NCBI GenBank assembly: GCA_964617805.1
Contig: CAZTWK010000004.1
Location: forward strand, 15,860 to 79,859
DNA length: 64,000 bases
Reading direction: 5' to 3'
DNA from: an uncultured Fibrobacteraceae bacterium
Lineage (GTDB): Bacteria > Krumholzibacteriota > Krumholzibacteriia > LZORAL124-64-63
Every line of letters starts with the position of its first letter. The stretch's first letter is position 1. The notes below the pieces were generated by a model. The model ran no database searches, had not been told where the DNA came from, and was given only the letters and a program-made list of their open reading frames with translations. Shown piece by piece: positions 4,712-29,445 of this stretch. The translations under genes and the position numbers were made by a program.

Positions 4712-6967
4712 TCAATCCCCCCGCGAGACATCCCCCCGCGAGACACGCCGTTCGCAATGGGGCCAGCGGTTCCGCAGCTGCCCCCGCAGGGTGGCGCCGT
4801 CGGTGGCCGGGGCCTCGCAGGCGCCGAAGCGGCAGACGTAGGCGGCCGGCGCGTCGTCGAGGGCCGTCTTGCCCCGGGCGCCCGGCAGCAGGGCGGCCAG
4901 GTCGTCGCCGGGTCCGCCCGCCGGCACCGCCGACAGCACCGCGTAGTGGGGATCCAGCTCCCAGAAGGCCGCGCGCAGGGCGGCGGTCCGCTCGGCGGCG
5001 GGATCGCCGGCGATCACCACCTCGTAGTGGGGCCCGTGGTACAGGGACGCGGCGTCGGCCCACCAGGCCATCTCCAGGCCCGCGCGGGCCAGCCAGTCGC
5101 CGTGGCGGGCGAGGATCTCCCCCACCCGTTCGCGCCCGGCGGGATCGCCGGCCAGGGCCGCCTCGCGCAGCAGGGCGTGCAGCATGGCCGAGGCCCCCGA
5201 GGGCTCCACGCTGTCGAAGAGGTCCACGCGGCGGCCGAGGGGCGCCTCGCCGCCGGCGGCGGTCAGGAAGAAGCCGCCCGCGGGGTCGGCGAAGAGCTCG
5301 CCGGCGGTGGCGAGCAGCTCCCGCGCCCGACGCAGGTCCCGCGGGTCGCCGCCGGCCTGGTAGAGGTCGAGCAGCCCGCCGGCCAGCAGGGCGTAGTCGT
5401 CGAGGATGCCCTCGCCGCTGCGCACGCCGTCGGTCGACGCGCGGCAGAGGCGGCCGTCGTCGTCGCGGTGCAGCTCCCAGAGGCGGTCGGCGGTGCGGCG
5501 CGCCGCCTCGAGATAACGGGCGTCGCCCAGCACGGCGTGGCCGCGCGCGAAGGCCGACAGGGCCAGGCCGTTCCAGGCGGTCACCAGCTTCCGGTCCAGG
5601 CCCGGCCACGTGCGCGCGGCGCGGTGGTCGTACAGGGCCTGGCGATGGCGATCGAAGAGACCGGCCATCTCGGCCTCGTCGCGGCCGAACTCGGCGGCCA
5701 CTTCCACGGGCGACACACGGCGTGTGAGGATGGACTTGCCCTCGAAGTTGCCCCCCTCGGTCACGCCCAGCAGGCTTGCCAGGACGGGGCCGTCCTCGGG
5801 GCCGGCCACCGCCGCGATCTCCGCCGGCGTCCACACGTAGAAGCTGCCCTCCTCGCCCCCGCTGTCCGCGTCGTAGCTGGCGTAGAAGCCGCCCGCGGGA
5901 TCGCTCAGGTCGCGCAGCATGAAGTCGAGCAGGTCCACGGCGATTTCCCGGTAACGCGCGTCGTCGAAGACCGTGGCGGCCTCCAGGTAGAGGCTGGCGA
6001 GCTGGGCGTCGTCGTAGAGCATGATCTCGAAGTGGGGCACCAACCAGGTGCGCTCGACGGTGTAGCGGTGGAAGCCGCCGCCCAGGTGGTCGTGGATACC
6101 GCCGCTGCCCATGGCCGACAGGGTGTGCCGGATGGCCGCCGCGAGTTCCGGGTCGCCGTTGCGGCGGTACTGGTGCAGCAGGAAGCGCCAGCGCAGCGGG
6201 GTGGGGAACTTCTGCTCCTGGCGGAAGCCGCCCCAGGTCTCGTCGTAGCTCTCGAGGGCCTCGGCGGCCAGGGCAGCCAGGGCCTCCGGTCCGGGCACCG
6301 CGTCCCCCTCGCGGACGATGTCGCGGGACAGGTGCTCGGCCACCCGCTTCGCCTGGCCCACGAGCTCGTCGCGTCGTTCGTCATAGGCGGTCGCGATGCT
6401 GCGGCAGAGGTGCAGGAACGGGTCGCGGGGAAAGTAGGTGCCCCCGAAGAAGGGCTCCAGGTCGGGCGTGAGGAAGGCGGTCAGGGGCCAGCCGCCGCGC
6501 CCGGTCATGGCCTGCACGGCCTCCATGTACACGGCGTCCAGGTCGGGGCGCTCCTCCCGGTCCACCTTGATGCAGACGAAGCGGGCGTTGACCAGGGCCG
6601 CCACCGCGTCGTCCTCGAAGACCTCGTGCTCCATCACGTGGCACCAGTGGCACGAGGCGTAGCCGATGGACAGGAAGATGGGCTTGTCCTCCTCGCGCGC
6701 CCGCGCCAGCGCCGCCTCCCCCCACGGATACCAGTCCACGGGGTTGTGGGCGTGCTGGCGGAGGTAGACGGAGCTCTCGTCGCGCAGGTGGTTGCCCTGG
6801 GCGCGGATCTGCGCGGGCGTGCGAAGCCCGTCGTCGCGGTCGGTCATGGCGGCTCCCGTGCACACGGCCAGGAGCGCCAGGAACGCGGCCGTGCGCAGAA
6901 GTGGCAAGACACGGCGTCGGCGCGAAGGCGCCGCCGCCTTATTGAGAACGGTTTTCATTCTGCACAT
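4712..6967 (-). CDS. thioredoxin-domain protein, DUF255/YyaL family (N-terminal thioredoxin-like fold plus six-hairpin glycosidase-like domain), secreted
   Basis: 751 aa. Signal peptide, then the hallmark DUF255 motif IGYASCHWCHVMEHEVFED. Long alpha-helical C-terminal domain. Confidence 0.8.
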   Translation of the reverse strand: MCRMKTVLNKAAAPSRRRRVLPLLRTAAFLALLAVCTGAAMTDRDDGLRTPAQIRAQGNHLRDESSVYLRQHAHNPVDWYPWGEAALARAREEDKPIFLSIGYASCHWCHVMEHEVFEDDAVAALVNARFVCIKVDREERPDLDAVYMEAVQAMTGRGGWPLTAFLTPDLEPFFGGTYFPRDPFLHLCRSIATAYDERRDELVGQAKRVAEHLSRDIVREGDAVPGPEALAALAAEALESYDETWGGFRQEQKFPTPLRWRFLLHQYRRNGDPELAAAIRHTLSAMGSGGIHDHLGGGFHRYTVERTWLVPHFEIMLYDDAQLASLYLEAATVFDDARYREIAVDLLDFMLRDLSDPAGGFYASYDADSGGEEGSFYVWTPAEIAAVAGPEDGPVLASLLGVTEGGNFEGKSILTRRVSPVEVAAEFGRDEAEMAGLFDRHRQALYDHRAARTWPGLDRKLVTAWNGLALSAFARGHAVLGDARYLEAARRTADRLWELHRDDDGRLCRASTDGVRSGEGILDDYALLAGGLLDLYQAGGDPRDLRRARELLATAGELFADPAGGFFLTAAGGEAPLGRRVDLFDSVEPSGASAMLHALLREAALAGDPAGRERVGEILARHGDWLARAGLEMAWWADAASLYHGPHYEVVIAGDPAAERTAALRAAFWELDPHYAVLSAVPAGGPGDDLAALLPGARGKTALDDAPAAYVCRFGACEAPATDGATLRGQLRNRWPHCERRVSRGDVSRGD

Positions 6968-7054
6968 GATAGTCGCAATGGAACCTTCTGCACCTCCCGG
7001 TTCAACGACGGCAAGCCCTTCCTCGTGGACGGGTCAGCTTTGATCCAACATCAA

Positions 7055-7198
7055 GAACAGATGAGTGGAGACGCTTCAGTCCGGGCGTCGGGAGGGGCCT
7101 GGAGCCACGGATGACGGATGGCCCCGCACGCCGAGCTGCCCGGCGACAGGACGTCGCCGGGCGGCGCCCCGGGCTGAAGCGTCTCCACTCATCTGTTC
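7055..7198. repeat. structured palindromic repeat, copy 3 (inverted orientation): 25-bp perfect outer stem, inner hairpin, diverged core
   Basis: gaacagatgagtggagacgcttcag (7055-7079) is the exact reverse complement of 7174-7198. Inner hairpin cccggcgac-aggac-gtcgccggg at 7139-7161. Core resembles copies at 20.5 kb and 52.1 kb (tggctccag motif). Confidence 0.6.
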
Positions 7199-7233
7199 GT
7201 GTTGATGATCACCAGGCATACGCGTCCACGCGC

Positions 7234-8208
7234 CTAGGACTTGCGCCCGACGATCACCTGGCTGTGCACGGCCACGTCGACGATCTCGAACTCGGCGAAA
7301 CCGGCGGCGCCCAGGGCCGCGACGGTCTCGGCGCGCGTGTAGGAGCGCCCCTGCTCGCTGCCCACCAGCATGTTCACGGCGAAGCGGGCGGCGAAGGGGG
7401 GCGCACAGCGGTCGTCGTCCAGGAAGAAGTCCTTCACCAGGATGCGGCCGCCGGGGACCAGAGCGGCGTGGGCCTTGCGGTAGATCAGGGCGATGGCCTC
7501 GTCGCCGAGGCTGTGGATGATGTTCGACACGTAGACCACGTCGAAGCCCTCGCCGAAGTCGTCCACGAAGTAGTCGCCCTCGACTGCGCGGACGCGGTCG
7601 CCCAGGTCCGTCGCGGCGATCACCTCGCGGGCGATGGCCACCGTCTCGGGCAGGTCGAAGACCACGCATTCGAGATCCGGATGGGCGGCCGCGAAGGTCA
7701 GGGCCGACGTGGCCGGACCGCCGCCGAGGTCCAGCAGGCGGCGGGCGTCGCCCAGGTCGACGCGCTCGACCACCTCGCGGCTCGACCCGCGCGAGATGTC
7801 GCGCATGCCGCAGATGTAGTCGCGGTGCTTGCGGGCCGAGGGGACGCGGGGCACCGGCCGTCCCGTGCGCAACGTCTCCTCGAGGCGCACCCAGCGCTTC
7901 ATGAGGTGGAAGTGGTGGGCGAAGATGTGGGACTGGGAGTTCTCGCCGTCGCGCAGCAGCAGCGCCGCGTTGTCCGGCGGCAGGCCGAAGCGCCCCGTCT
8001 CGTCCCGCGCCAGGACACCGGCCGCCGCCAGGGCGTGTAGCAGGATGTCCACCGCGCGTCCGTCCAGCTCCAAGCGGGCGGCCAGCTCCGCGGGGCGGTG
8101 GGCCTCGCGTCCGAGGGCCTCGATCAGGCCCGTCTGCAGGGCGGTCAGGAGGATGGCGGCGTTCTGATAGCCGTGCGCGAGCGTTTCCAGGCGTTCCTTG
8201 GCGTCCAT
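7234..8208 (-). CDS. class I SAM-dependent O-methyltransferase (with N-terminal dimerisation/winged-helix domain)
   Basis: 324 aa. LDLGGGPAT SAM-binding glycine motif. Overall plant/bacterial O-methyltransferase family architecture. Confidence 0.75.
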   Translation of the reverse strand: MDAKERLETLAHGYQNAAILLTALQTGLIEALGREAHRPAELAARLELDGRAVDILLHALAAAGVLARDETGRFGLPPDNAALLLRDGENSQSHIFAHHFHLMKRWVRLEETLRTGRPVPRVPSARKHRDYICGMRDISRGSSREVVERVDLGDARRLLDLGGGPATSALTFAAAHPDLECVVFDLPETVAIAREVIAATDLGDRVRAVEGDYFVDDFGEGFDVVYVSNIIHSLGDEAIALIYRKAHAALVPGGRILVKDFFLDDDRCAPPFAARFAVNMLVGSEQGRSYTRAETVAALGAAGFAEFEIVDVAVHSQVIVGRKS

Positions 8209-8317
8209 GGCGGGCTCCTTCGGTTGGTCGTCCCGGACCCGATTCTAAGGGCTGTCCCGTGCATGGCAAGACCGCTCTGGACGCCGACGCGCCGGCAGCG
8301 CCGAAAAAACGGGGAGG

Positions 8318-8350
8318 GCCCTGCGGCCCTCCCCTTCGCGTGTCCGTGCG
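8318..8350 (-). terminator. intrinsic terminator downstream of the rhodanese lipoprotein gene
   Basis: Hairpin ggggagggcc-ctgc-ggccctcccc. Read on the minus strand it is followed by TTTTTT. Confidence 0.5.
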
Positions 8351-8357
8351 GGCGAGG

Positions 8358-10223
8358 TTAGGGGATCGGCGTCGTTTCGAGCGGGAAGTCGTTCTGGGCG
8401 CCGGCGCCCCACTTGTGTCCCAACAGGTCGTCGTAGAACAGGTTGTTGGAACCGAACTTCAGCGACAACGCCTCGTAGCCCAGCATGTTCAGCGCCGCGG
8501 TGATCTGGCTGCTGTGCTGTCCGGTCCAGCAGTAGACCACGATGGGCATGTCCGTGGGCAGATGGCCCAGCATGGTCTCCATGCTCATGCTCGCGTAGGG
8601 CGTGAACTGGAAGGCGCCCGGGATGTGGCCCGGCACGCCGTCTTCGCCGACGCCCAGATAATCGTCCTCGTTGAAGTAGTTGACGACGAAGTAGTCCTCG
8701 AGGTTGTCCATGATGTCGGCGTACATCACGCCCTGGAAGCCCTCGCCGAGCATCCAGGCCACGCGGTCGGCCACCACGGTGCCGGCGTCGTAGCCGGCGA
8801 GCTCCGGATAGGCGTAGCCCACGAGGTCGCCGTTGTTGTTGTCGGTCTCGGCCACGGCCAGGGTGTTGTCCACGTTGTTGTTCCACGGACCGCTGAGGGT
8901 CGTGTTCCAGGCGGACATGCCGAACTTGAGGCTGCTCACGTCCTCGTAGCCCAGCAGCTCCAGGGAGATCTTGGCGTGGCCGGCGCTCTGGCCGGTGTAG
9001 CAGGCGACCACCATGGGCAGGTCGACCGGGATGGTCGTGCCCACGTCGGTCAGCAGCGTCGACAGCGACGAGTGGTAGGCGCCCGTGATGTGGCCGGCGT
9101 CGTAGTCGGTCTGGCTGCGGATGTCGATGACCGTGTAGTCCTCGAGGTTGTCGTAGAGGGCCTGCGCGCCCAGCACGCCGGGGCAGTCGCCGTTGTCGTT
9201 GACGTAGTCGACGACGGCGGCTTCCATGGCCGCGAACACCGGCGTCGGCACGCTGCCGATCTCCAGCTCGAAGTCGTAGGAGGCGCTCCACTTGTGGCCG
9301 GTCAGCAGACTGTGGAACAGGTTGTTGGAACCGAACTTGAGCGAGTAGGCCTCGTAGCCCAGCAGATTCAGGTAGGCCGTGATCTGCGAGGAGTGCTGAC
9401 CGGTCCAGCAGTAGACGATGATCGGCGTGTCCGTGGGCAGGTTGTCCAGCATCTGGTCGTCGCCGAGGCTGGCGTAGGGCGTGAACTGGAAGGCGCCGGG
9501 GATGTGGCCCGGCACGCCGTCTTCGCCGTTGCCGAGGTAGTCGTTCTCTCCGAAGTAGTTGAGGATGAAGTAGTCGTCGAGGTTGTCCATGATGTCGGCG
9601 TAGCTCTTGCCCTTGAAGCCCTCGTTGAGCATCCAGGCCACGCGCTCGGCCACCACCGTGCCCGCGTCGTAGCCGCTGAGGGCGGGGAAGTCGTGGGTGC
9701 TCAGGTCGCCGTTGTTGTTGTCGGTCTCGGGCGCGGCGAGGTTGTCGCCGCAGTTGGTGGTCCACTTGTCCAGCGAGGGGCTCCAGGAGGACATGCCGAA
9801 CTTCAGGCTGTTGACGTCGTCGTAGCCCATCAGCTCCATGGCGATCTTGGCGTGGCCGGCGCTCTGGCCGGTGTAGCAGGCCACCACGTAGGGCTTGTCC
9901 GCGGGGATGGCCTTGGCCGCCAAGTCGGCCAGCAGCGTGCCGAGCGACGAGTGGTACGCGCCGGGGATGTGGCCGGCGAGGTAGTCCGCTTCCGAGCGGA
10001 TGTCGATGACCGTGTAGTCCTCGAGGTTGTCGTGGAGGTTCTGGGCGTCGAGCACGCCGGGGCACTGGGCGTTGTCGTTGACGTAGGCCTTGCCAGCCGC
10101 CACCATGGCCTCGAACGCCGTTTCCTCGGGGGTCGGCGACGTGCCGTCGTCGGAGCAACCCCAGACGGCCACCATGGCGATCAGCAGCAATGCCGTCCAC
10201 ATCAAGCGCTTCTGCATTCTCAT
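8358..10223 (-). CDS. lipoprotein with four rhodanese-like sulfurtransferase domains (internal tandem duplication of a two-domain unit)
   Basis: Lipobox VWGC after the signal peptide. Two ~290-aa halves are clearly homologous. Each half carries candidate active-site loops CYTGQSAGHAK and CWTGQHSSQ. Good SD (GAGGAG) before the start. Confidence 0.8.
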   Translation of the reverse strand: MRMQKRLMWTALLLIAMVAVWGCSDDGTSPTPEETAFEAMVAAGKAYVNDNAQCPGVLDAQNLHDNLEDYTVIDIRSEADYLAGHIPGAYHSSLGTLLADLAAKAIPADKPYVVACYTGQSAGHAKIAMELMGYDDVNSLKFGMSSWSPSLDKWTTNCGDNLAAPETDNNNGDLSTHDFPALSGYDAGTVVAERVAWMLNEGFKGKSYADIMDNLDDYFILNYFGENDYLGNGEDGVPGHIPGAFQFTPYASLGDDQMLDNLPTDTPIIVYCWTGQHSSQITAYLNLLGYEAYSLKFGSNNLFHSLLTGHKWSASYDFELEIGSVPTPVFAAMEAAVVDYVNDNGDCPGVLGAQALYDNLEDYTVIDIRSQTDYDAGHITGAYHSSLSTLLTDVGTTIPVDLPMVVACYTGQSAGHAKISLELLGYEDVSSLKFGMSAWNTTLSGPWNNNVDNTLAVAETDNNNGDLVGYAYPELAGYDAGTVVADRVAWMLGEGFQGVMYADIMDNLEDYFVVNYFNEDDYLGVGEDGVPGHIPGAFQFTPYASMSMETMLGHLPTDMPIVVYCWTGQHSSQITAALNMLGYEALSLKFGSNNLFYDDLLGHKWGAGAQNDFPLETTPIP

Positions 10224-10323
10224 CACTCCTCAGTCGAGCCCGCGGGCTCGGGGTTGTGGAGCGGCGCGGGCCGCCCCGTGCTAACGGAGACCGGGCGCGG
10301 CAAACGCCCGGCCGCTATACGCG

Positions 10324-11820
10324 TCATTCTTCCTCTTCCGGAAAGGATTCCGGGATCACGATGCCGACGTTCGCGTCGTGGTCCGGCAACGGCGTGACGC
10401 CGTCCTCGTCGTAGAGATCCGACACGCGCAACAGGTAGCCCTCGGGCGCGTCGGGCGATAGATGGCAGGCGTCGGAGCAGGACTGGCCCGCCTCGACCGT
10501 GGTCTGCGGCGTGTTGCGCAGGATGTTGTGGGGCGACGCGTAGGTCCAGGTCGGCTCGTCGAGATAGCCGGGCAGATCCAGGCCCCAATCCGCGAAGGTG
10601 CCGGGATCGGTGGGCACGTGCCTCACCACGGAGAAGTCGTACTCATCCCGGTACGGGCTCGGATTCCGCGCGATCTTGAACTGGATGCGGCTGGGATCGA
10701 TCTCGAACTTCGCTCCCTCGTCTGCCACCAGGTTGTGGCAGTTCGTGCAGTTCTTGTAGGGTTGCGAATGGCAGACCTGGCACTGGAGGTTCACGTCGGG
10801 CACGCCCACGTGCGCCTCGTGGAACTCGTTGTCCCACGCGCCGTCGAGGCCCTCGCCGTGGCAGTCCTCGCAACGGGGCATGGTGGCCACCTCGTAGCGG
10901 TGCTCGTAGTGGTCGCCGGCGTGCTGGCCATCGCCGTGCATCTCCTCCGCGCTGTGGCAGTTCTCGCACTTCATGCCGGCGCTGCGGTGCAGGTCGGGCA
11001 CGTTGCCCTCGAGTTCGCCCTTGAAATCGACCCCGACACGGCTGCCGTGACAGGCGGTGCACTGCTCGTTCATGTCCGGCGAGGCCCGGAAGCGGTGCGA
11101 GTAGTAGGAGCCGATCTTGGGGAAGCCGCCGCCCACGCTGTTGGGCCGGCCGATGTGGCACTGGCCGCAGGTGGTGTGGCAGCCGCCGCACTTGTTGTCG
11201 AAGTAGGTTTCGTAGCCCGACCCCTCGAAGACGCAGCGCCCGCGCGTCTCGATGGCGCGCTTCTCGCCCCAGAGATTGGTGTGCAGGCTGTTGGCGGTGG
11301 CCGCGGCCTCCGCCTCGTGGCACCCGGCGCAGGCGGAGTCGGCGAAGTCCTCCTCGTGGCAAGCGACGCAGCCGGACGGCCCGACGGCGCTGGGATCGGC
11401 GATCATGCCGTCATGGGCTTCGGCCATGTCGTCGAACGTGTTGTCGGGCTGACCCCCGTGGCAGTGCTGGCACGATAGCGGGTGCGGCACCAGGTCGCCC
11501 TCGTAGTCGGGGCCGTGCGCGCTGGTCAGGAAGCGGGTGGCGTTGGTGCCCCTGATGATGACCTTCTCCCAAGCCTCCAGCTCGGGTACGTCGCCGCCTC
11601 AGCCGTCCTGCTTGTGGGGCACGACCGCCTTGCTGCCCCCCGCGTCGGCCAGGGCCGCCTGGAGCATCTCCTCGCTCTCGTGGCAGCCGAGACAGGTCAG
11701 ATCGGTCAGGTGATCGCCCTCGCCCGGATCGAGCAGTTCGTTGGAGGTGTCGTGTTCGCACCCCCACAGGCAGGCCAGCGCCAGCAACGACATGGCGCTT
11801 ACGGTGATGACTCTGTTCAT
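10324..11820 (-). CDS. multiheme c-type cytochrome lipoprotein (about 12 CXXCH) interrupted by one in-frame TGA at 11599-11601: candidate selenoprotein or readthrough gene
   Basis: ORF 11599..11820 encodes lipoprotein signal MNRVITVSAMSLLALACLWGC plus CLGCH. ORF 10324..11490 encodes 11 further heme motifs (CQHCH, CVACH, CAGCH, CGGCH, CGQCH, CTACH, CENCH, CEDCH, CQVCH, CTNCH, CSDACH) with no signal peptide of its own. The two are in the same frame, separated only by a TGA and 36 sense codons. The downstream ORF start in the track is a GTG. Confidence 0.6.
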
Positions 11821-12464
11821 CGGGCTCTCCCGCGTTGGGCCGCGTCCCGGCTCGTGGAACCGTCGTGGAGTCCGCGAGCGAAGATCGGCACGTTGTTGCA
11901 GATGACCGTTTCGGCGTCGAGCCTGGTTCCGTCCAGGTCGCCCCAGACGTCGGCGCTGAGGGCGCAATCCATGACCATCCCCACGAAGCAGCGTCCGGTG
12001 ATGTAGGGGTCCACCTCGCGGATCTCTCCGGCGGAGATCCGGCGGGACAGTTCGTCGCGCAGGAACTCGATATAGGGCAGCCGGACTTCCTTGAAGAGCA
12101 CCGCGGAGCCCGGGCCGCTGTCCAGACGGTTGAAGTGCATCAGGCGAATCAGTTCGGGATCGCGGTCGGCCAGGGCGAGGATGTGCCTCGCCAGCATGAT
12201 GAGCATCTCCTCGATCCCTTCCCGGTCGGCCCGTCCGCTCAGGTAGGCGCGGATGTCGTGCTGGCGGGCCTTGTCGCGGATCACCTCTTCGTAGAGGTGG
12301 GCCTTGCCGTCGTAGTGGCGATAGATGGCGGCTTCGCTGATGCCGCAGGTGCCGGCGATGAGCCGGATGGAGGTCCCGGCGTAGCCCTTGTCCGCGAACA
12401 GGCGCGAGGCGTTCGCGAGGATCTGACGGCTGCGGCTGCCCGGACTGCCCTTGGCGGTCATCAT
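11817..12464 (-). CDS. TetR/AcrR family transcriptional regulator
   Basis: 215 aa. N-terminal HTH (RQILANASRLFADKGYAGTSIRLIAGTCGISEAAIYRHY). Stop overlaps the downstream cytochrome start (ATGA). Confidence 0.85.
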   Translation of the reverse strand: MMTAKGSPGSRSRQILANASRLFADKGYAGTSIRLIAGTCGISEAAIYRHYDGKAHLYEEVIRDKARQHDIRAYLSGRADREGIEEMLIMLARHILALADRDPELIRLMHFNRLDSGPGSAVLFKEVRLPYIEFLRDELSRRISAGEIREVDPYITGRCFVGMVMDCALSADVWGDLDGTRLDAETVICNNVPIFARGLHDGSTSRDAAQRGRAR

Positions 12465-12473
12465 CGCATCCCC

Positions 12474-14405
12474 CTAGAACCGGCCCGACAGCGCGAGGGT
12501 GTAGAGGTCCAGGATGTAGTCGTCCCACCTGTTCTCGTCGAACTCGTGGCGCCGGAAGGCCGCATGGGCCGTCTTGCCCGGCGAGAACTCCCAGCTCGCG
12601 CGCACGAGCAGGCGATTGTAGTCGGACATGACGTCGTCGGACACGCCGCCGGTCCCCGCGGCGTCCTCGTGCCGCACGCCCTCGTAGTGGCCCTCCACGC
12701 GCAGCGTCTCGCCGAGCTTGAGGGTCGCGCCGGGGGCGAAGCGCAGGGTGGTGCCGTCGTAGACCAGCGGCGCCATGCCCGCTTCCGCGTCCGGGCCGTC
12801 GGTGAGCCGGTACTCCTCGCGGCCCAGCGACACCGTCCCCAGCAGGGTTAGCCGGTCGTTCGCCAACCAGCTCGCCGCCACGTAGCCGCGACGGGCCCGC
12901 CAGGTCGTCTCGGTGTTCTCGAGATCGAGCCGCCGGAAGGTCCGTTCGACGACCCGGTGCCCCAGATCGACGCGCAGGTCGCGCAGGGGCCGCGCCTGCA
13001 GGGCCACCCGGCCGCCGTACTGCTCGCGTTCGCGATCGCCCATCCAGAAGTGCCAGGGCTCGCCGGAGGTCGTATCCCAGGTGTCGAGCTGCTCCACTTC
13101 GGAGCCGCGCCATTCGGCGCGCGCCTTCAGGACGGTGCGGGCGCCGAGGCGTACCCGCCCGCGGAAACCGACCTCCTGGTCCCGCCTGTCCTGGGCGGTG
13201 GTCTGGCTATCGCCCTCCAGGCCGCTGCCGGGGACGCCGTCCAGGGCCCGGGTCTCGTCCAGATCGGAGCTGCGGTACTTGTAGTGGAGCCGGAGACGCG
13301 TCCGGTCCAGCGCCGTAGTCGTCAGCACGGCGCGGAGATCCCGGCTAGACCGGCTGCGATCGGCGGCCTGGAGAGTCGCGTCGCCGAAGTCGACCCGGCC
13401 CTCGCTGTTCAGGCTGCGCAGGCCGGCCGACAGGCGCAGGGTCGAGGCGCGACCCAGCTTCTTGATCAGGCCGAGCCGGCCGGTATCCGTGTTCGCGTCG
13501 CCCGGGGACGTGAGCCGATTTCCCTGGTAGGTCTCGAACTGGGCGCTCTCCAGGCGCGAGGTCGCGGCGGCGCCCAGGACGCGCAACCCGTCGCCCACGT
13601 CCAGGGACGCCTTGAGCCGGGCGCTCCAGAGCTCGCCGTCGGCCTCGTAGGCGTGGCGAGTGTCGAGGGTGCGGGTACCGTCCGCGCCGCGATGGCTCAG
13701 ACGCAGATCGCCCGCGAAACCGCCGCGGGCATAGGCGCCGCGCAACCAGAATTCCCGGGCGGTCGTGTCGAAGGCCCTGGACGCCGGCGGCGCTTCGCCG
13801 GCGACCAGCATGCCCCGGGCCAGGCTGCTCTTCTCGCCCGAGCGCCTGGTCTGCACGGCGCCCGCCGACACGTCGAGACCGTCCCGGACATGGTGGCGCA
13901 CGCTGATCCGGGCGCGGTTCCAGTCGAGGACCGGCGCCGGGTCGAGGGCGGGGGGCGGAGGGTCGAGCCGGAAGACGGGCGCCCGCATCTCGCTGGTATC
14001 GTCGTAGTGGTGGTGGAAGCTGCGGTACGAGGCCGCGATGGCGTACCGGCCGGGCGCGCCCCAGTCCAGGGCGACGGCGCCGCTCGCGCCGGCCCCGCTG
14101 CCGTAGTCGCCCGCGCCCCGCAGGGACAGCCGGCGCCCGTCGTCCCGCACCCGCCGCCAGCCGAAGAGGCCCGCGTGACGGTGCTCGTCCACCCGCCACG
14201 CGTCCTCCGCCGCCTTGGCGCCACTGCCGTAGGCGTCCATGAATTCACCGGCGAGGGCCCAGTGGTTGCCGGTGCCGACCAGGTCGCCCGCGGGCGCCCA
14301 GATCCGGCCGGCCTGGACGGGCAGATCGTCCGCCGCCGCGACGGCGCTCACGATCAGAAGCGCCGCGGCCAGGACCATGCTGTAGGTCGAGCTCGTCGTC
14401 TTCAT
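12474..14405 (-). CDS. outer-membrane beta-barrel of the MtrB/PioB (porin-cytochrome) type
   Basis: 643 aa. Signal peptide. Many alternating amphipathic beta-strand segments rich in R, D, G and aromatics. C-terminal residue F. Begins 13 nt after the decaheme cytochrome gene. Confidence 0.7.
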   Translation of the reverse strand: MKTTSSTYSMVLAAALLIVSAVAAADDLPVQAGRIWAPAGDLVGTGNHWALAGEFMDAYGSGAKAAEDAWRVDEHRHAGLFGWRRVRDDGRRLSLRGAGDYGSGAGASGAVALDWGAPGRYAIAASYRSFHHHYDDTSEMRAPVFRLDPPPPALDPAPVLDWNRARISVRHHVRDGLDVSAGAVQTRRSGEKSSLARGMLVAGEAPPASRAFDTTAREFWLRGAYARGGFAGDLRLSHRGADGTRTLDTRHAYEADGELWSARLKASLDVGDGLRVLGAAATSRLESAQFETYQGNRLTSPGDANTDTGRLGLIKKLGRASTLRLSAGLRSLNSEGRVDFGDATLQAADRSRSSRDLRAVLTTTALDRTRLRLHYKYRSSDLDETRALDGVPGSGLEGDSQTTAQDRRDQEVGFRGRVRLGARTVLKARAEWRGSEVEQLDTWDTTSGEPWHFWMGDREREQYGGRVALQARPLRDLRVDLGHRVVERTFRRLDLENTETTWRARRGYVAASWLANDRLTLLGTVSLGREEYRLTDGPDAEAGMAPLVYDGTTLRFAPGATLKLGETLRVEGHYEGVRHEDAAGTGGVSDDVMSDYNRLLVRASWEFSPGKTAHAAFRRHEFDENRWDDYILDLYTLALSGRF

Positions 14406-14418
14406 GACCTTGCGCCTC

Positions 14419-15336
14419 CTAGTCGCGGAACGTCGGCGAGACGTTCGAACCGTGGATTTCCGTATGGCAGTCGTAGCAACGGGCCTCGCCGCCCAGGTAA
14501 CCGCCGTGATTGGCGTCGCCCAGCTCCCAGTTGTCGTCGGGACCGAAGGACGTCTCGAAATGGCACTGCAGACAGAGCGTGCCGCCGTCGGTGACCAGCA
14601 GCTTGTCGTTCATCGAGCCGTGGGGCCGATGGCAGGCGACGCAATCCTCGCCGGCGACGCCTTCGTGCTCGAAGACGAAGGGGCCGGACATCTCCGTATG
14701 GCAGGCGAGACAGACGTCGCTCATCCCGTTCCAGCCCACGTCGGGGAAGTCCGCGTGGGGATCGTGGCAATCGCCGCAGGTCACGGTGCCTTCCAGCACC
14801 CTGTGCCGGAAGGGCAGCCGGAAGTCGGAGGCCTGCGACCCGTGGCATTGGAGGCAGAACTCCGACGGATTGCGATAGTGCGACGGCGGCGTGACGTCCC
14901 CCGTGAAGTGCATCTGATCGAGGTGGCAGTCGGCGCAGCCCACGCCGCTCCCGGCGTGGGGGCCCGCGTGCCAGTCGACGCGCCGGTTCGCGTGGCACTG
15001 GGTGCACATGGCCGCGCGGTCGGCCTCGGACATCCGGGAGATGGCCTCCGCCCCGAGGATGAACCCGTCCCCCTCCTGCTCCACGTGCAGGCTGCCGGGG
15101 CCGTGGCAGGCCTCGCAGGCGTCGATGCCGGTGCCGGGCACCGTGGCCGCGCGCGACACCGCGTGGGGTGAATGCGCCGCGGGATCCTCGACGTCGTCGT
15201 GGCAGTCGAGGCAGGCGTCAGCGCCCACGTAGGCGGCCTCGGCCGGCACCCCGAGCCCTTCGCTGTACGTGCCAGTCGACGCCTGCGCCGCGATCAGGAC
15301 GAGTATCCCCGCCATCGGCAGGATCAGACGCTGCAT
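14419..15336 (-). CDS. periplasmic decaheme c-type cytochrome, MtrA/PioA-like
   Basis: Start MQRLILPMAGILVLIAAQA with strong SD GGAGGT. Ten CXXCH motifs: CLDCH, CEACH, CTQCH, CADCH, CLQCH, CGDCH, CLACH, CVACH, CLQCH, CYDCH. Confidence 0.85.
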   Translation of the reverse strand: MQRLILPMAGILVLIAAQASTGTYSEGLGVPAEAAYVGADACLDCHDDVEDPAAHSPHAVSRAATVPGTGIDACEACHGPGSLHVEQEGDGFILGAEAISRMSEADRAAMCTQCHANRRVDWHAGPHAGSGVGCADCHLDQMHFTGDVTPPSHYRNPSEFCLQCHGSQASDFRLPFRHRVLEGTVTCGDCHDPHADFPDVGWNGMSDVCLACHTEMSGPFVFEHEGVAGEDCVACHRPHGSMNDKLLVTDGGTLCLQCHFETSFGPDDNWELGDANHGGYLGGEARCYDCHTEIHGSNVSPTFRD

Positions 15337-15408
15337 GGGTGACCTCCACGCGAGAAGTGAACGTTCACTGATCGATTCAACGATATTTCCCGCAGGTGAC
15401 CTGGGCAA

Positions 15409-15480
15409 GCTATTTCGTTGGTATATAAAGGTCTTATATCATATCTAAATACTGGGCTATCGAGTGATTCCGGAGATTTC
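15409..15480. promoter_or_regulatory. AT-rich divergent promoter island between the cytochrome operon and the GT2 gene, with inverted repeat TATATAA-N5-TTATAT
   Basis: ctatttcgttggtatataaaggtcttatatcatatctaaatactgg is strikingly AT-rich against the GC-rich background. The palindrome is a possible operator, perhaps for the TetR encoded in the operon. Confidence 0.4.
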
Positions 15481-15628
15481 CAGGCCGATGAAGCATGTAC
15501 TGGACAGCCCGACATCGCGCCTCGGCCAGGCGGTTTCGACTTCAGGAAAGCCGTTCAGGGCCGATATCATACTCGTCCAGGCGCCCCGCGTGAATCGCCG
15601 TGCGCCGGTGCCCCATTCCGGAGGATAG

Positions 15629-16585
15629 ATGGCCGACACGCCCTTGATCAGCGTCGTCATTCCCTGCTACAAGGCCGCCGACACCCTGCCGGGGACGCTG
15701 GAGTCCGTCCTGTCCCAGGACCACGCCCAGGTGGAAGTCGTCGCGGTGGACGACGGCTCGCCGGACGACACCTCCGGCGTGCTGCTCGGCTACGGCGACC
15801 GCATCACCGCCGTGCGCATCGCCAACAGCGGCGGGCCCGCCCGCCCGCGTAACGTGGGCATCGACCAGGCGCAGGGAGAGTTCGTGGCCCTGCTGGATGC
15901 CGACGACATGATGCTGCCCGGCAAGCTCTCGGCCCAGGCCGCCGTCTTCGCGGCCCTGCCCGAGGTGGACCTGGTCTGCACCGACTTCCGGCGCGTCGAC
16001 GCCGACGGCTCCGTGCTCGCGAACAGCTACCTCGCCGACTACCGCGGCTTCCGGCGCCTGCTTCGCCCCACCGCGCTGCCGGGCGTGTCCCTGCTGTCCG
16101 CAAACGATCTCCACCACGAGTTGCTGCGGGGGAATTTCGTGGGCACCTCGAGCGTGATGGCCCGCCGCGATCGCCTGCGGGCCGTCGGCGGCTTCGACGA
16201 GACCCTGCGCAACGGCGACGACATCGACATGTGGCTCAAGCTGGCCCGCGACGGTGCCGTCTTCGCCTTCCTGGACCGCCCCTATCACGACTACCGCGTC
16301 AACGACGCGGGCATCTCCGCCGGCGGCTGGCGCCGGTTCCCTTCGGTGATCCGGGTGCGCGAGCGCCAGCTCGACCACATCACCGACCCCGAGATGCGCC
16401 GCTACCTCGACGACCGCCTGCTCTACATGCGGCTGGGCTACGCCTGGGGCCTGCGCGGCGACGGCCGCTACGACGAGGCCCTGCCCGCCTACCGCGAAGC
16501 CATCGCCCAGCGCTGGACCTGGCGCGGTTTCAAGGGCCTGGTGATGACGCGAGTGCTTTCGCTGCTGTCGTTTGGACGTCGCTAG
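15629..16585 (+). CDS. family 2 glycosyltransferase
   Basis: 318 aa. N-terminus ISVVIPCYKAADTL, DDGSPDDT and LDADD motifs of GT-A/GT2 enzymes. Confidence 0.85.
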   Translation: MADTPLISVVIPCYKAADTLPGTLESVLSQDHAQVEVVAVDDGSPDDTSGVLLGYGDRITAVRIANSGGPARPRNVGIDQAQGEFVALLDADDMMLPGKLSAQAAVFAALPEVDLVCTDFRRVDADGSVLANSYLADYRGFRRLLRPTALPGVSLLSANDLHHELLRGNFVGTSSVMARRDRLRAVGGFDETLRNGDDIDMWLKLARDGAVFAFLDRPYHDYRVNDAGISAGGWRRFPSVIRVRERQLDHITDPEMRRYLDDRLLYMRLGYAWGLRGDGRYDEALPAYREAIAQRWTWRGFKGLVMTRVLSLLSFGRR

Positions 16586-16651: not shown

Positions 16652-17977
16652 CTACCAGTAGACGGTGGCGGAACTGTACCACCAGCCCTGGCTGTCGGGA
16701 TCGCCGCCGTACATGTCCTTGTTGCGGGAGAACATGCCGTAGCCGGTCTTCCAGCCGAAGTCCGGAGCATTGAACATGACGAAGACGTCGATCTCGCTAC
16801 CGATGGAGGTCTCGTCGTTGCCGGAGCCGGTGAAGGCGCCGCCGATGTCCTCGACCGTGGCGAACTTGTGGAACGCGCCGCCGGCCGTCCAGGAGCCATT
16901 GATGGGGTACTTGGCCATGGCGAAGATGTCCATCAGGCCCGCGAACATGCCCATGGGATTCAGGTTCTGGTCCATGGCGCCCCAGAAGCGGTGGTAGTCC
17001 ATGTACAGGTTGTTGAAGTTCTCGTACTTGTCGTTCGTGGTGGTATCGTCACCGGTAGTGTAGTCCACGCCACCGGCGACCTTGAGGCCGCTGCTGAACT
17101 TCTTCGCGACCTTGCCGTTGAACATCATGCCGGAGAGGTCAGCCCCGTCGTCGTGGGTGCCGCTCTGCATGGCGAACATACCGTCGAACCAGACGTCCGT
17201 TGTAATCTCGCGGTTGGTGTAGGCGCCGAAGGTCATGAATGTGGTGTCGTCGGTGAAGGTCGGCGGCACTGAGAAGCTGCCCGGCATGGGCATCTTCACG
17301 TAGTAGATGAAGAAATCGACATTCTGCTCGGCCATGTTCAGGTTCACACCGTAGACCATGGGATCGGCCTGGGGGTCGTTCTGCCAGGGATCCGTACCGG
17401 TCGGATCGAAGTCCACGCTGGGACTGGTATCGCCGTACTCATCGAGCTGGAAGGCGAAGGCCGTGATGCTGGCATTCTCGTTGAACTGGCGACCGAACAT
17501 CAGACCCTCGAAGGTCCGTCCGACGTTGTCCCAGGGCACGGCGCTGATCAGGCGGCCGTTGTGCAGGGTGACCTCCATGATACCGGCCTTGAGCCAGCCC
17601 TTTTCACAGGGCTTGTACCAGAGGTAGGCCTGATGCGTCTGCAGGTCCATGGTGTTGAAGTTCTGGCTCATGTTGCTACCGATGAAGCGGCTGTCCTGCA
17701 TCTGGAAGAAGGCGCCGGCCTTGTCGTTGGCCTTGGCCTTCACACCCACGCGGGCCCGCGACTCGGTGTACCAGCTGAGAGGCGTGTCGGAGTTGAAGTC
17801 GAAACCTTCCGTGTTGAATCGATAGCGGAACGAACCGGAGACGCTCAGATCAGTCTCGGTCTCGTCGCCACAGCCTCCACACCCAGCACAGCTGCTGCCG
17901 CAGCCAGCCAGTACGTCGTATGCACCGAACGTCATCAGCATGACCATGAACAGCACAAACAGTTTTCGCGAATTCAA
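16652..17977 (-). CDS. outer-membrane beta-barrel lipoprotein/porin (alginate-export-like family), TTG start
   Basis: SD GGAAGGAG then TTG. N-terminus MNSRKLFVLFMVMLMTFGAYDVLAGC (lipobox LAGC). Cys/Gly-rich linker. Beta-barrel-like body ending in aromatic residue W. Confidence 0.6.
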   Translation of the reverse strand: MNSRKLFVLFMVMLMTFGAYDVLAGCGSSCAGCGGCGDETETDLSVSGSFRYRFNTEGFDFNSDTPLSWYTESRARVGVKAKANDKAGAFFQMQDSRFIGSNMSQNFNTMDLQTHQAYLWYKPCEKGWLKAGIMEVTLHNGRLISAVPWDNVGRTFEGLMFGRQFNENASITAFAFQLDEYGDTSPSVDFDPTGTDPWQNDPQADPMVYGVNLNMAEQNVDFFIYYVKMPMPGSFSVPPTFTDDTTFMTFGAYTNREITTDVWFDGMFAMQSGTHDDGADLSGMMFNGKVAKKFSSGLKVAGGVDYTTGDDTTTNDKYENFNNLYMDYHRFWGAMDQNLNPMGMFAGLMDIFAMAKYPINGSWTAGGAFHKFATVEDIGGAFTGSGNDETSIGSEIDVFVMFNAPDFGWKTGYGMFSRNKDMYGGDPDSQGWWYSSATVYW

Positions 17978-18258
17978 GGCGGTCTCCTTCCGGCATAACC
18001 ATGTCGCCGACCGGGCATTCCTTGTATCCGGCGGCAAATTCTGGGCGGTATGTTGGCACCCCTCATCAAGGGTAGCAAGGATTATTTGCCTTATTTGAGA
18101 ATTGATCTCAATTGCCCCCACCCCCCGAATCGCCCGTTTTCAGCCGTTGACAGGCCAGGAGCCCTTCTCTAGCTTGAGTCGCGTAGTCCCTTGTCGATAA
18201 GGACTTGAGTGAGGAAACGCCCCCGGATCGCCGGATCCCCCCCCCGACCCGAGGAGTC

Positions 18259-19827
18259 CGGATGGAATCGCGCCCCTCGAGACCGGCCCCGCCGGCCCCC
18301 CGCCTGATGGTCCTGCTGGGCCTGGCCCTGGCCCTCGTCCTGGCCTGGACGCCGCCCGCCGGCGCCCAGCACGACGAGCACCACGACCCGGCCGCCGCCG
18401 AGGAGACCGTACACGGCGCCGAGACCGCTCACGCCGCCGGGGCCGACGATCATCACGGCCCGGCCCTGGGTGCGCGCCTGCCCTTGTGGAGCGCCCTGCC
18501 GTTCGTGGGCATCCTGCTGTCGATCGCCGTGTTTCCGCTGGTGGCGCCCCATTTCTGGCACCGGCACTTCCCCAAGGTATCCGCCTTCTGGGCCCTGGTC
18601 TTCGCCGTGCCGTTCGTGATCGCCTACCGGAGCGAGGCGGTGCAGTCGATCCTGCACATCTACCTGATCGACTACATCCCCTTCATCGTGCTGCTGTGGG
18701 CCCTGTTCACCATCTCGGGCGGCATCTTCGTGGGCGGGAGTCTGCGGGGCTCGCCCAAGGTCAACCTGGTGCTGCTGCTTATCGGCACCGCCCTGGCCTC
18801 GTGGATCGGCACCACGGGCGCCGCCATGGTCATGATCCGGCCCCTGTTGCGGGCCAACGGCTGGCGCCGGCACAAGGTGCACGTGATCGTCTTCTTCATC
18901 TTCCTGGTGGCCAATATCGGAGGTTCCCTTACACCCCTGGGCGATCCGCCCCTGTTCCTGGGCTTCCTGCACGGGGTGCCCTTCTTCTGGGTGACCAGGG
19001 CCCTGCTGCCGCACATGCTGCTGGTGGTGGGCATCCTGCTGGCGGTCTTCTGGGCCGTGGACACCTACTGGTACCGCAAGGAGGAAGAGCCGCCGCCGGA
19101 CGACGGCAAGGGCGAGGGCATCAGCGTCCAGGGCGCGCACAACCTGATCTTCCTGCTGGGCGTGATGGGCGGCGTTATCTTCTCGGGTTCGGTCAAGCTG
19201 GACGCGCTGACCGTCTACGGGCACGTGTACGTGGAGCTGCAGAACCTGCTGAAGGACGGTTTCCTGATCCTGATGGGCCTGCTATCCCTGCGCACCACCG
19301 CCCGGGTGATCCGCGAGAGGAACGAGTTCGGCTGGTTCCCGATACAGGAGGTCGCCTACCTTTTCGCCGGCATATTCATGACGATCATTCCGGCCCTGGC
19401 CATCCTCCAGGTGGGCACACACGGGGCCCTGGCGGGCCTGATCGAGTTCGTCAAGACGCCCATGCACTACTTCTGGGTGACCGGCGGCCTGTCCAGCTTC
19501 CTGGACAACGCGCCGACATACCTGACATTCTTCAACACGGCGCTGGGCAGCTTCGGCCAGCCCGAGACGGCCGTGCCGGGCATGCTGGGCTACCTCGGCG
19601 AGACGGCCCGCAACACGCACTTCATCCGCGACCTGACGGCCATCTCCGCCGGCGCGGTCTTCATGGGCGCCATGACCTACATCGGCAACGCGCCCAACTT
19701 CATGGTCAAGTCCATCGCCGAGGAGGCCGGCATCCCCATGCCGAGCTTCTTCGGCTTCATGGTCAAGTATTCGTTGCCCATCCTGGTGCCGGTCTTCGTG
19801 ATCGTCACCCTCGTCTTCTTCGTCTAG
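18259..19827 (+). CDS. ArsB/NhaD-superfamily ion transporter (putative Na+/H+ antiporter), His-rich N-terminal periplasmic segment
   Basis: Start MESRPSR with SD GAGGAG. Signal-like LMVLLGLALALVLA. His-rich stretch QHDEHHDPAAAEETVHGAETAHAAGADDHHG. About 11 transmembrane segments. IGGSLTPLGDPPLFLG motif. Confidence 0.65.
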   Translation, partial: RMESRPSRPAPPAPRLMVLLGLALALVLAWTPPAGAQHDEHHDPAAAEETVHGAETAHAAGADDHHGPALGARLPLWSALPFVGILLSIAVFPLVAPHFWHRHFPKVSAFWALVFAVPFVIAYRSEAVQSILHIYLIDYIPFIVLLWALFTISGGIFVGGSLRGSPKVNLVLLLIGTALASWIGTTGAAMVMIRPLLRANGWRRHKVHVIVFFIFLVANIGGSLTPLGDPPLFLGFLHGVPFFWVTRALLPHMLLVVGILLAVFWAVDTYWYRKEEEPPPDDGKGEGISVQGAHNLIFLLGVMGGVIFSGSVKLDALTVYGHVYVELQNLLKDGFLILMGLLSLRTTARVIRERNEFGWFPIQEVAYLFAGIFMTIIPALAILQVGTHGALAGLIEFVKTPMHYFWVTGGLSSFLDNAPTYLTFFNTALGSFGQPETAVPGMLGYLGETARNTHFIRDLTAISAGAVFMGAMTYIGNAPNFMVKSIAEEAGIPMPSFFGFMVKYSLPILVPVFVIVTLVFFV

Positions 19828-25532: not shown

Positions 25533-25744
25533 TGACGGACTCCTTCTCGGGAAAGAATGGTCAGCGGGATTGGTTTTCTCTGCGGGACCCTAATTATACA
25601 TCATTTCAGGGTCTTGATACAAGACATACCCTCGTACAACGGTCGGGATATTCCTTCTTCCATCGTCCAATAGAAGATCGAATTTCATGCAGAAAACGCA
25701 AAATAACGGGACAGCCGCCGGTTTCAGGCGACGAAAAGGCGGCG

Positions 25745-28846: not shown

Positions 28847-29356
28847 CTACTTTTCCTTGAGCCTGCCCTCGCCCTTGGCCTGACGGTAGTTCTCGCAGCT
28901 CTCGACGTCCGTGCAGGATCCGTAGAGTTCCAGGCGGTGACGGTGGATGGTGAACTCGTGCTCGCCGGCCAGCTTCTCCTGCAGGGCCTCGAGCTCCGGG
29001 TTGAAGAACTCGAAGATGCGGCCGCAGTTCTGGCAGATCATGTGGTCGTGGTGCTCGACCTGGGAATGACCTTCGTATCGCGCCAGGCCGTCGCCGAAAC
29101 GGCGCTCCTCGACCAGCCCGCTGCGGACCAGCAGGTGCAGCGTGCGGTAGACCGTGGCGTATCCGATCTTCGGGTTGACGGCCTTGACCTCGCGCAGCAA
29201 CTCCTCGACGGAGATGTGTCCCTTCAGGTTGAAGAACACGTTGACGATGGTGTTGCGCTGGCGGGTGGTCTTCAGACCCTCCGACTGGATGAACTTCTGG
29301 AAGGCCCGTTCCTTCTCCTTGACGGCCTCCGGTAAGACGTCTCGCTTGATGGCCAC
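28847..29356 (-). CDS. fur: Fur family transcriptional regulator
   Basis: 169 aa. Winged helix plus HHDH...C-x2-C metal-binding motifs (HHDHMICQNCGRIFEF). Confidence 0.85.
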   Translation of the reverse strand: MAIKRDVLPEAVKEKERAFQKFIQSEGLKTTRQRNTIVNVFFNLKGHISVEELLREVKAVNPKIGYATVYRTLHLLVRSGLVEERRFGDGLARYEGHSQVEHHDHMICQNCGRIFEFFNPELEALQEKLAGEHEFTIHRHRLELYGSCTDVESCENYRQAKGEGRLKEK

Positions 29357-29394
29357 GTGCTGTTCCTTCCTGTGCAGTGAAGCGTGATTCTGAT

Positions 29395-29445
29395 ATCCAA
29401 AATCAAGGAAATTGATAATTCACCTTCTGACGCCTGTCAAGTCCT
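29395..29445. promoter_or_regulatory. AT-rich Fur-box-like sequence upstream of fur (possible autoregulation)
   Basis: tgattctgatatccaaaatcaaggaaattgataattcacc contains GATAAT/ATTGATAATT elements resembling the Fur-box consensus. Confidence 0.35.

Follow-up and report, generated by a model that had tools for sequence, protein, structure and literature searches.

An MtrAB-type gene pair in a predicted operon with a multiheme cytochrome, very likely a selenoprotein, and a four-domain rhodanese lipoprotein in a Krumholzibacteriota-like bacterium

The window analyzed here is a 64,000-nucleotide stretch of DNA from an uncultured Fibrobacteraceae bacterium (GTDB lineage Krumholzibacteriota; assembly GCA_964617805.1, contig CAZTWK010000004.1, positions 15,860 to 79,859 of the forward strand), and our subject is a cluster of five close-packed genes on its minus strand, at 8358 to 15408. 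The cluster encodes a decaheme cytochrome of the MtrA type, an MtrB-like outer-membrane barrel, a TetR-family regulator, a 12-heme lipoprotein cytochrome with what is very likely a selenocysteine (Sec) residue, and a lipoprotein with four rhodanese domains. We favor, at a rough probability of 55%, the reading that these genes are a single TetR-regulated unit in which an MtrAB conduit is combined with a chalcogen-handling pair, the Sec-cytochrome and the rhodanese protein, acting by the mechanism proposed below. Sulfur or selenium compounds, and not metals, are the probable partners with which the module exchanges electrons. An earlier interpretation, made from the DNA letters alone (the sequence-only reading), had named the same parts in the same order, from an MtrA-like decaheme with 10 CXXCH motifs, followed after 13 nucleotides (nt) by a 643-amino-acid barrel, through a TetR and an ~12-heme lipoprotein to the rhodanese protein; this was correct throughout, coordinates included. 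The features of the locus are as follows.

15356 to 15369, minus strand: candidate TetR operator, ~30 nt ahead of the ATG of the decaheme gene; the 14-bp sequence (AGTGAACGTTCACT) is a perfect palindrome
14419 to 15336, minus strand: MtrA/DmsE-family periplasmic decaheme cytochrome c (ten CXXCH motifs, TIGR03508, 6r2q_A)
12474 to 14405, minus strand: MtrB/PioB-like outer-membrane beta-barrel of 643 amino acids with a signal peptide (AlphaFold2 model, Foldseek, PF11854 in the family)
11817 to 12464, minus strand: TetR-family regulator (PF00440 at E = 1.4e-14)
10324 to 11820, minus strand: lipoprotein multiheme cytochrome c, predicted Sec at residue 74 of 498 (translation through the TGA)
11599 to 11601, minus strand: in-frame UGA, very likely a Sec codon (conserved in ~75 of 80 species genomes)
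11568 to 11586, minus strand: SECIS-like hairpin, with an 8-bp stem (CCCGAGCU/GGCUUGGG) and the loop GGA (fold and covariation)
8358 to 10226, minus strand: lipoprotein of 622 amino acids with four rhodanese domains (PF00581)
8311 to 8334, minus strand: terminator-like GC hairpin with a T-run, 24 nt past the rhodanese stop codon

The window has a G+C content of ~69%. Along the operon the genes are spaced by 13 nt, 9 nt, a 4-nt overlap, in which the TGA stop of TetR overlaps the ATG of the cytochrome (ATGA), and 97 nt. The minus strand showed no terminator-like site within the cluster, and the hairpin at 8311 to 8334 is likely to mark the 3′ end of the operon. The longest open reading frame (ORF) of the decaheme spans 14419 to 15408, with a TTG start at 15408; the true start is likely the ATG at 15336, which is followed by a signal peptide. 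For comparison, a scan of one genome per species recovered 219 relatives of the cytochrome, and 80 of these loci were searched with the window proteins by tblastn; denominators given below are the loci that could be evaluated. The five genes occur in the same order in 31 of the 34 evaluable species genomes that carry decaheme and barrel, so that the arrangement is not a matter of chance, and the synteny check that the sequence-only reading had asked for came out in its favor. The five genes are probably a single transcription unit, autoregulated by its own TetR.

The in-frame TGA of the cytochrome gene very likely encodes Sec, judging from a conserved codon and a covarying hairpin behind it; a selenoprotein had earlier been raised as a possibility. 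The gene opens with a lipobox (LWGC) and one CXXCH motif before the TGA and continues in the same frame for 424 codons. In the species genomes that keep the UGA, it is preceded by a lipoprotein signal peptide and one heme motif and lies within the motif [DE]G-U-GG-x-V-x-x-L-E-x-W-E-K (D-G-U-G-G locally in the window, with a predicted peptide across the Sec of DG-U-GGDVPELEAWEK). The hairpin begins 15 nt after the U of the UGA, and its 3-nt loop, which starts with G and is GGA or GUU in the family, lies 23 nt from that U, a spacing expected of a bacterial Sec insertion sequence (SECIS). Among 57 distinct sequences, 96.9% of the stem cells are paired. At the pair 20-30, 33 of them have AU and 24 have CG, with zero mismatches, the change on the 3′ side falling at a synonymous third codon position. 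A second class of hairpin, moved by one codon (11 sequences), has one pair that is CG in 4, GC in 4, and AU in 3, again with no mismatch. All 8 stem positions pair in 55 of the 73 TGA-bearing loci and 7 of 8 in another 16, compared with 5 to 6 of 8 in five homologues that lack the TGA and have a near-identical peptide. An Rfam scan of the window matched no SECIS or other family.

Among the non-Sec exceptions, two species carry TGG (Trp), and a further three show short in-frame deletions or substitutions. An origin of the Trp as a code-4 translation artifact was rejected, as the codon is truly TGG in L005 and L006. TGA is the commonest ordinary stop in the window, ending 16 of 31 confident ORFs, including those of TetR and the cytochrome, and a reassignment of UGA to Gly (code 25) or Trp was rejected on this ground. 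In the non-Sec homologues (L005/L038, L006, L047, L085, and L086) the number of heme motifs tends to be 13, not 12. None of selA, selB, selC (tRNA-Sec), or selD was found in the 64-kb window by a tRNA scan and among the ORFs scanned; selD (TIGR00476, 334 bits) is present 1.3 kb upstream of the module in one of the compared loci, L050.

Past the TGA the cytochrome has ten CXXCH motifs and one CX3CH, for a total of 11 CXXCH and one CX3CH. When this part was used as the query (E ≤ 1e-3), 752 protein clusters were recovered, the best 120 of them at 50 to 70% identity. Of the gene calls for these best 120, six are full length; the other 114 begin at the TGA or shortly behind it and so miss the N-terminus. 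Many of the shortened calls (for example, P0024, P0036, and P0045) are labeled “thiosulfate/3-mercaptopyruvate sulfurtransferase” by the Joint Genome Institute and have no rhodanese domain inside; the label was probably carried over from the neighboring gene or from a fused reference. Across the family the 12 heme motifs are conserved, together with 10 non-motif His residues at ≥97% and one at 82%; ten to eleven such His for 12 hemes therefore leave room for one or two unusually ligated hemes. The non-motif Cys196 was considered as a heme-ligating Cys like that of the His/Cys heme of MccSep, the multiheme selenoprotein of Geobacter, and is not supported as one at 61% conservation.

The best PDB profile match of the cytochrome is to the c7-type repeats of 3ov0 (E = 8e-11 over part of the length). 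Sequence and profile searches of the PDB returned no relative of MccSep or MtrC, the negative for MccSep resting mainly on the NF040886 (ExtKL) model, to which the window cytochrome had no match at E ≤ 0.01. Against PF22113 (MtrC/MtrF domain) it scores 19.5 bits, below the cut-off of 30, and sub-threshold or weak matches to this domain recur in many of its homologues. By these sequence comparisons the lipoprotein cytochrome belongs neither to the MtrC/OmcA/MtrF family nor to that of MccSep. A 2026 review of prokaryotic selenoproteins lists as cytochrome-type only ExtKL, the GSU2204 barrel, and octaheme tetrathionate reductase (PMC13188914). The window cytochrome matches no model of these three, and in the literature we found no account of its family.

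The decaheme and the barrel are an MtrAB-type pair, established by the MtrB affinity of the barrel together with the adjoining MtrA homologue, and the sequence-only reading was right to name them so. The decaheme scores 203.6 bits against TIGR03508 (DmsE/MtrA family; cut-off, 192.2), and its best PDB sequence match is 6r2q_A (333 amino acids; E = 1.5e-40, residues 37 to 298, nearly full length), which we take to be MtrA of the Shewanella Mtr complex. The molecule name attached to 6r2q_A among the PDB sequences is “Cystathionine beta-synthase,” which looks like a deposition or parsing error. The window barrel itself reached no Pfam or NCBIfam family threshold, including those of PF11854 (MtrB_PioB) and TIGR03509. 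A word-index search gave four relatives of it and an exhaustive profile search gave 62 among 1.84 billion representatives, so the family is small. When 33 members were scanned singly, PF11854 was matched by 12 (best E = 9.6e-10) and a generic outer-membrane barrel model by 14; the sequence link of the window barrel to PF11854 is thus transitive only, through its family members. An AlphaFold2 model built from the family alignment is all-beta with ~26 strands (mean predicted local distance difference test [pLDDT] score, 84.9), in line with the 26 to 28 strands that had been anticipated. In a Foldseek search of the PDB its first match was 6r2q_B (MtrB; E = 9.6e-17, TM score 0.64), followed by 22-strand TonB-dependent receptors at 1.6e-9, seven orders of magnitude weaker; the alternative of an unrelated porin was not borne out.

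The rhodanese lipoprotein (lipobox VWGC) matches PF00581 in four stretches (166 bits, E = 3e-49), and all four domains keep the catalytic Cys, in CYTGQSA twice and in CWTGQHS twice. Domain 1 weakly matches Sud (PDB 1qxn, E = 7e-4). In 71 of 73 loci the gene immediately after that of the cytochrome encodes this lipoprotein, and in 50 of 73 the gene immediately before that of the cytochrome encodes TetR. Loss of the rhodanese protein goes together with loss of Sec: 70 loci have both, none has Sec without rhodanese, three (L006, L047, and L086) have neither, and one has no Sec and retains only a single 127-amino-acid rhodanese domain (Fisher P = 6e-5, with small numbers and phylogeny uncorrected). 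The rhodanese protein is thus tied to the cytochrome and is no bystander, as the sequence-only reading had suspected. In L006 the Mtr pair and TetR are kept and the rhodanese is lost.

The decaheme and barrel are upstream in 36 of 64 loci and are never found apart (barrel in 36, decaheme in 36, both in 36). The pair is limited to the closer relatives, mostly metagenome-assembled genomes (MAGs) labeled Krumholzibacteriota. More distant members, in MAGs of Eisenbacteria, Gemmatimonadota, “Deltaproteobacteria,” Ignavibacteria, and Deferribacteres, have only the cytochrome and a two-domain rhodanese, in varied surroundings. Because the cytochrome-rhodanese core is Mtr-less in many genomes, the conduit pair is best seen as the add-on of one lineage; on this comparative sequence evidence, the evolutionary unit is (regulator)-Sec-cytochrome-rhodanese, with MtrAB put in front. 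The earlier view of rhodanese as a component of an Mtr module therefore holds insofar as the genes are joined in an operon, and it is reversed as to which part was added to which.

The regulatory region fits the same picture. Of 38 loci, 22 have a palindrome with an AACGTT core (consensus, A[AG]T[AG]AACGTT[TC]ACT) between −28 and −46 relative to the decaheme start, the background rate being 0.02 occurrences per 290 nt; loci without decaheme and barrel have it ~31 nt upstream of TetR instead. The exact palindrome of the window, GTGAACGTTCAC, was found in none of the other loci, the conserved element being the degenerate AACGTT-core form. That the palindrome tracks whichever gene comes first fits an operator of the embedded TetR, and it is a candidate for that role. 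The promoter region may be an AT-rich imperfect inverted repeat at 15411 to 15451 (TATTTCGTTGGTATATAA/TTATATCATATCTAAATA), ~75 to 115 nt before the start of the decaheme gene; a sigma-70-like match lies further upstream, at 15594 to 15566. In L050, a “Deltaproteobacteria” MAG, TetR is replaced by a fusion of an ArsR-family regulator with a rhodanese domain. There, selD (5662 to 6603, minus strand) and the ArsR-rhodanese gene (6890 to 7630, plus strand) precede the cytochrome-rhodanese pair; in the selD gene call, roughly the first 33 positions of the model are missing.

The sequence-only reading had regarded the combination of genes as uncharacterized. This did not stand, since the Geobacter cluster ExtHIJKL already brings together ExtH (a rhodanese lipoprotein), ExtI (a porin), and ExtKL, or MccSep (a multiheme selenoprotein) (PMC13510729, PMC6148476, PMC5877670). 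MccSep is a periplasmic pentaheme protein with Sec in a mobile D-G-U-P loop beside a His/Cys-ligated heme; it was shown in 2026 to be a polysulfide reductase required for S0 respiration, and it reduces selenite less efficiently, with an about sevenfold preference for polysulfide (PMC13510729). The ExtI/ExtH cluster was first tied to selenite and tellurite reduction (PMC5877670). The window cluster and ExtHIJKL(MNOPQS) of Geobacter sulfurreducens have a common cast, namely, a rhodanese lipoprotein, an outer-membrane barrel, and a multiheme cytochrome with one Sec in a D-G-U loop, and TetR-family regulators are reported beside some ext clusters too (PMC13510729, PMC6148476, PMC5877670). Homology of the parts is not demonstrated, however, and only the local D-G-U motif is shared with MccSep. 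The window cytochrome has 12 hemes rather than 5, is a lipoprotein whereas MccSep is soluble in the periplasm, and carries its predicted Sec near the N-terminus (74 of 498), the Sec of MccSep being in a C-terminal Ig-like domain. The barrel is MtrB-like with ~26 strands and is paired with an MtrA decaheme, in contrast to the 21-strand, phosphate-porin-like ExtI. The rhodanese protein has four active-site-bearing domains and matches the ExtH model (NF040901) over residues 8 to 98 only, at 21.3 bits (cut-off, 200); it is not an equivalog of ExtH. The hosts also differ, being Krumholzibacteriota-like and other lineages related to the Fibrobacterota-Chlorobiota-Bacteroidota (FCB) group here and Desulfobacterota for ext. 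We class the window system, by analogy, as one that would work like ExtHIJKL but is made of different parts and joined to a true Mtr conduit.

Like Shewanella MtrCAB (6R2Q), the window system has an MtrA-type decaheme, an MtrB-like barrel, and a lipoprotein multiheme cytochrome in one operon; the order is A-B-(TetR)-cytochrome here and C-A-B in Shewanella, and the window cytochrome is not MtrC/OmcA, bears a predicted Sec, and is accompanied by rhodanese. PioAB and MtoAB have the same two-component MtrA/MtrB-type pair, work without an MtrC-type partner, and can carry electrons inward. They are tied to Fe(II) oxidation and lack a Sec-cytochrome or rhodanese, whereas nothing here indicates iron. 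In Wolinella Sud-Psr and Aquifex SbdP, sulfur from polysulfide is bound by a rhodanese-type carrier, which passes it on to a terminal reductase. The terminal enzyme of those systems is a molybdopterin protein and here would be a multiheme selenoprotein, and Sud is soluble with a single domain. Compared with Geobacter GSU2203, the window decaheme scores 203 bits against the family model (cut-off, 325), and the barrel is a weak match to GSU2204, below the cut-off of 350 bits. GSU2204 is an MtrB/PioB-like barrel that is itself a selenoprotein (PMC13188914), so that Sec lies in the barrel there and in the lipoprotein cytochrome here. Overall, the central idea of the earlier interpretation, an outer-membrane conduit coupled to sulfur-compound chemistry, is supported.

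We propose, by analogy with Geobacter ExtHIJKL, a mechanism with two modules. The first would be the MtrAB conduit, with the decaheme threaded through the ~26-strand barrel. The second would be the chalcogen pair, i.e., the 12-heme Sec lipoprotein cytochrome and the rhodanese lipoprotein, which is present across several phyla. Polysulfide, S0, thiosulfate, or selenite would be the source of sulfane sulfur (or selenium), which the rhodanese Cys residues would bind as persulfides and pass on to the cytochrome. There the selenolate of U74 would attack the S-S or Se bond to form a covalent Se-S intermediate, and the heme chain would resolve this intermediate, with electrons supplied or removed via MtrA in MtrB. 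In this lineage the pair would sit at the cell surface as the equivalent of MtrC, where it could reach poorly soluble S0 and polysulfide. Within this scheme we infer the substrate, the electron direction, the catalytic role of Sec, and the surface location.

Several observations weigh against the scheme. Cys stands at the Sec position in no sampled homologue, the only replacements being Trp or a deletion, whereas a catalytic Sec would ordinarily be expected to have Cys variants. Cys196, as noted, is conserved at only 61%. An AlphaFold2 model of a Trp-variant homologue (P0026) has a pLDDT of 63.5, and of <50 around the Sec site; because of this low confidence it gives no structural support for a Sec near a heme, and a Foldseek search with it matched nothing in the PDB. 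No sulfur- or selenium-metabolism genes were found among the window ORFs scanned around the cluster, and the cytochrome family is known from genes alone. In ~28 of 64 loci the cytochrome-rhodanese pair has no Mtr pair beside it. One of these settings is L061, where the gene directly past the rhodanese (13311 to 15293, plus strand) encodes a 660-amino-acid protein in which an 11-heme cytochrome c is fused to a cytochrome b561 membrane domain (Ni_hydr_CYTB); this protein may be the quinol link of an Mtr-less module. The Mtr-less loci and this inner-membrane fusion argue for a periplasmic location, at least in the genomes concerned and as the ancestral state. Near the L061 module, on the other strand, are genes for an 8-heme cytochrome and for a 453-amino-acid protein without a family match.

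The fullest form of our proposal is that the 12-heme Sec lipoprotein and the rhodanese protein sit on the surface as the terminal module of MtrAB. The system would then be the first extracellular selenoenzyme and the first Mtr conduit for insoluble chalcogens (S0, polysulfide, or elemental Se), with a second family of multiheme selenoproteins, showing no detectable relation to MccSep, that is widespread in Krumholzibacteriota, Eisenbacteria, Latescibacterota, and Gemmatimonadota. We advance this fuller form only tentatively. A tether motif, C-[DE]-[NH]-[DAS]-T-x-N, after the lipid Cys is found in 30 of 31 cytochromes with the Mtr pair and 1 of 19 without (Fisher P = 2e-11, a value inflated by shared ancestry). 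The close relatives L028, L044, and L046 lack the Mtr pair and lack the motif as well; that the tether tracks the Mtr pair even among close relatives suggests that the cytochrome has adapted to the conduit. The acidic residues after the lipid Cys presumably resemble the surface-export signal of FCB-group lipoproteins.

A doubtful but still serious alternative is that the anchored pair faces the periplasm and no extracellular cytochrome is involved. The pair might oxidize reduced sulfur (sulfide-derived polysulfide or thiosulfate) while MtrAB exports the electrons to an acceptor outside the cell, or MtrAB might, in the manner of PioAB or MtoAB, import electrons from an outside donor for periplasmic reduction of polysulfide or selenite. 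The Mtr-less loci and the L061 fusion, of a kind typical of an inner-membrane quinol link, speak for this reading, as do the ability of PioAB and MtoAB to work without an MtrC-type partner and the position of the L006 cluster beside genes for cytochrome oxidase and alternative complex III (ACIII). The periplasmic location of MccSep points in the same direction (PMC13510729). On the other side stand the specific adaptation suggested by the tether motif and the lack of any other candidate extracellular partner encoded in the cluster. The presumed likeness to the FCB export signal would also tell against a periplasmic pair.

It is unlikely that the substrates are instead selenium or tellurium oxyanions, handled for detoxification, respiration, or selenium acquisition, with the rhodanese carrying perselenide. 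The first reported role of the ExtI/ExtH cluster in selenite and tellurite reduction (PMC5877670) and the selenite reduction by MccSep, less efficient than that of polysulfide (PMC13510729), lend this reading some plausibility, as do the adjoining selD of L050 and the methyltransferase syntenic downstream in 9 loci. Weak matches to NCBIfam “selenite/tellurite reduction operon” models (ExtH, E = 1e-4; ExtM, E = 3e-4) also point this way but are far below the cut-offs. Moreover, selenium is scarce relative to sulfur in most habitats, MccSep favors polysulfide about sevenfold, and four rhodanese domains fit the bulk handling of sulfane sulfur better.

More improbable still is an ordinary Fe/Mn conduit of the Mtr/Pio/Mto kind, in which the cytochrome would be a divergent MtrC analogue and the rhodanese an unrelated neighbor, even though the MtrA and MtrB affinities are solid, many cytochrome homologues have weak or sub-threshold PF22113 matches, and Krumholzibacteria MAGs have been proposed as iron cyclers (PMC7914226). 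The inheritance of rhodanese with the cytochrome across phyla, mostly independently of MtrAB, and the joint loss of Sec and rhodanese are hard to reconcile with it, and PDB profile and fold searches detected no relation of the cytochrome to MtrC. We also know of no MtrC or OmcA that contains Sec. Finally, we give almost no credence to the TGA being a real stop or the gene a pseudogene, with a 73-amino-acid monoheme lipoprotein and a separate 424-amino-acid cytochrome: gene callers do split the gene in this way and tRNA-Sec, selA, and selB are absent from the window, but the downstream part has neither a conserved start codon nor the signal peptide needed for heme attachment, frame and peptide are conserved across the TGA in ~75 of 80 species, the covarying hairpin lies at SECIS distance, and the sole replacements are TGG or in-frame deletions that preserve a single ORF.

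The genes around the cluster add several side observations. Upstream, a divergent family-2 glycosyltransferase gene (15629 to 16585, plus strand) lies between the cluster and a gene for a 489-amino-acid outer-membrane protein (16652 to 18121, minus strand) that matches the AlgE-like Alginate_exp barrel (E = 1.2e-9). About 10 related loci (L008, L011 to L014, L021, L036, L039, and L045 among them) have a homologue of this protein in front of the decaheme, and by analogy with ExtI the protein could be a substrate channel. On the other side, beyond the terminator-like hairpin, are genes for an O-methyltransferase (PF00891; 7234 to 8208, minus strand), with only faint matches to ArsM and TehB-type models, and a DUF255 thioredoxin-domain protein (4712 to 6967, minus strand); both are syntenic downstream of the rhodanese in ~9 related loci. 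Farther away, the window encodes a CitMHS_2 transporter (18205 to 19827, plus strand), a 1575-amino-acid C25 (gingipain-type) peptidase (20862 to 25589, minus strand), and a Fur-family regulator (28847 to 29419, minus strand). The C-terminal sorting domain of the peptidase is of the type IX secretion kind, consistent with a host from the FCB group.

How bacteria respire or oxidize poorly soluble sulfur is still largely unsolved, and the first multiheme selenoenzyme for polysulfide reduction was reported only in 2026, in Desulfobacterota. The locus described here indicates a second family of multiheme selenoproteins, with no detectable relation to MccSep, whose genes are systematically split at the UGA by gene callers. 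If our reading is true, sulfur and selenium cycling would be assigned to little-known sediment phyla that are now scored as “iron cyclers” from Mtr-like genes, and selenium-dependent heme catalysis would reach beyond MccSep. The cluster would also offer a testable case of an Mtr conduit for a nonmetal substrate.

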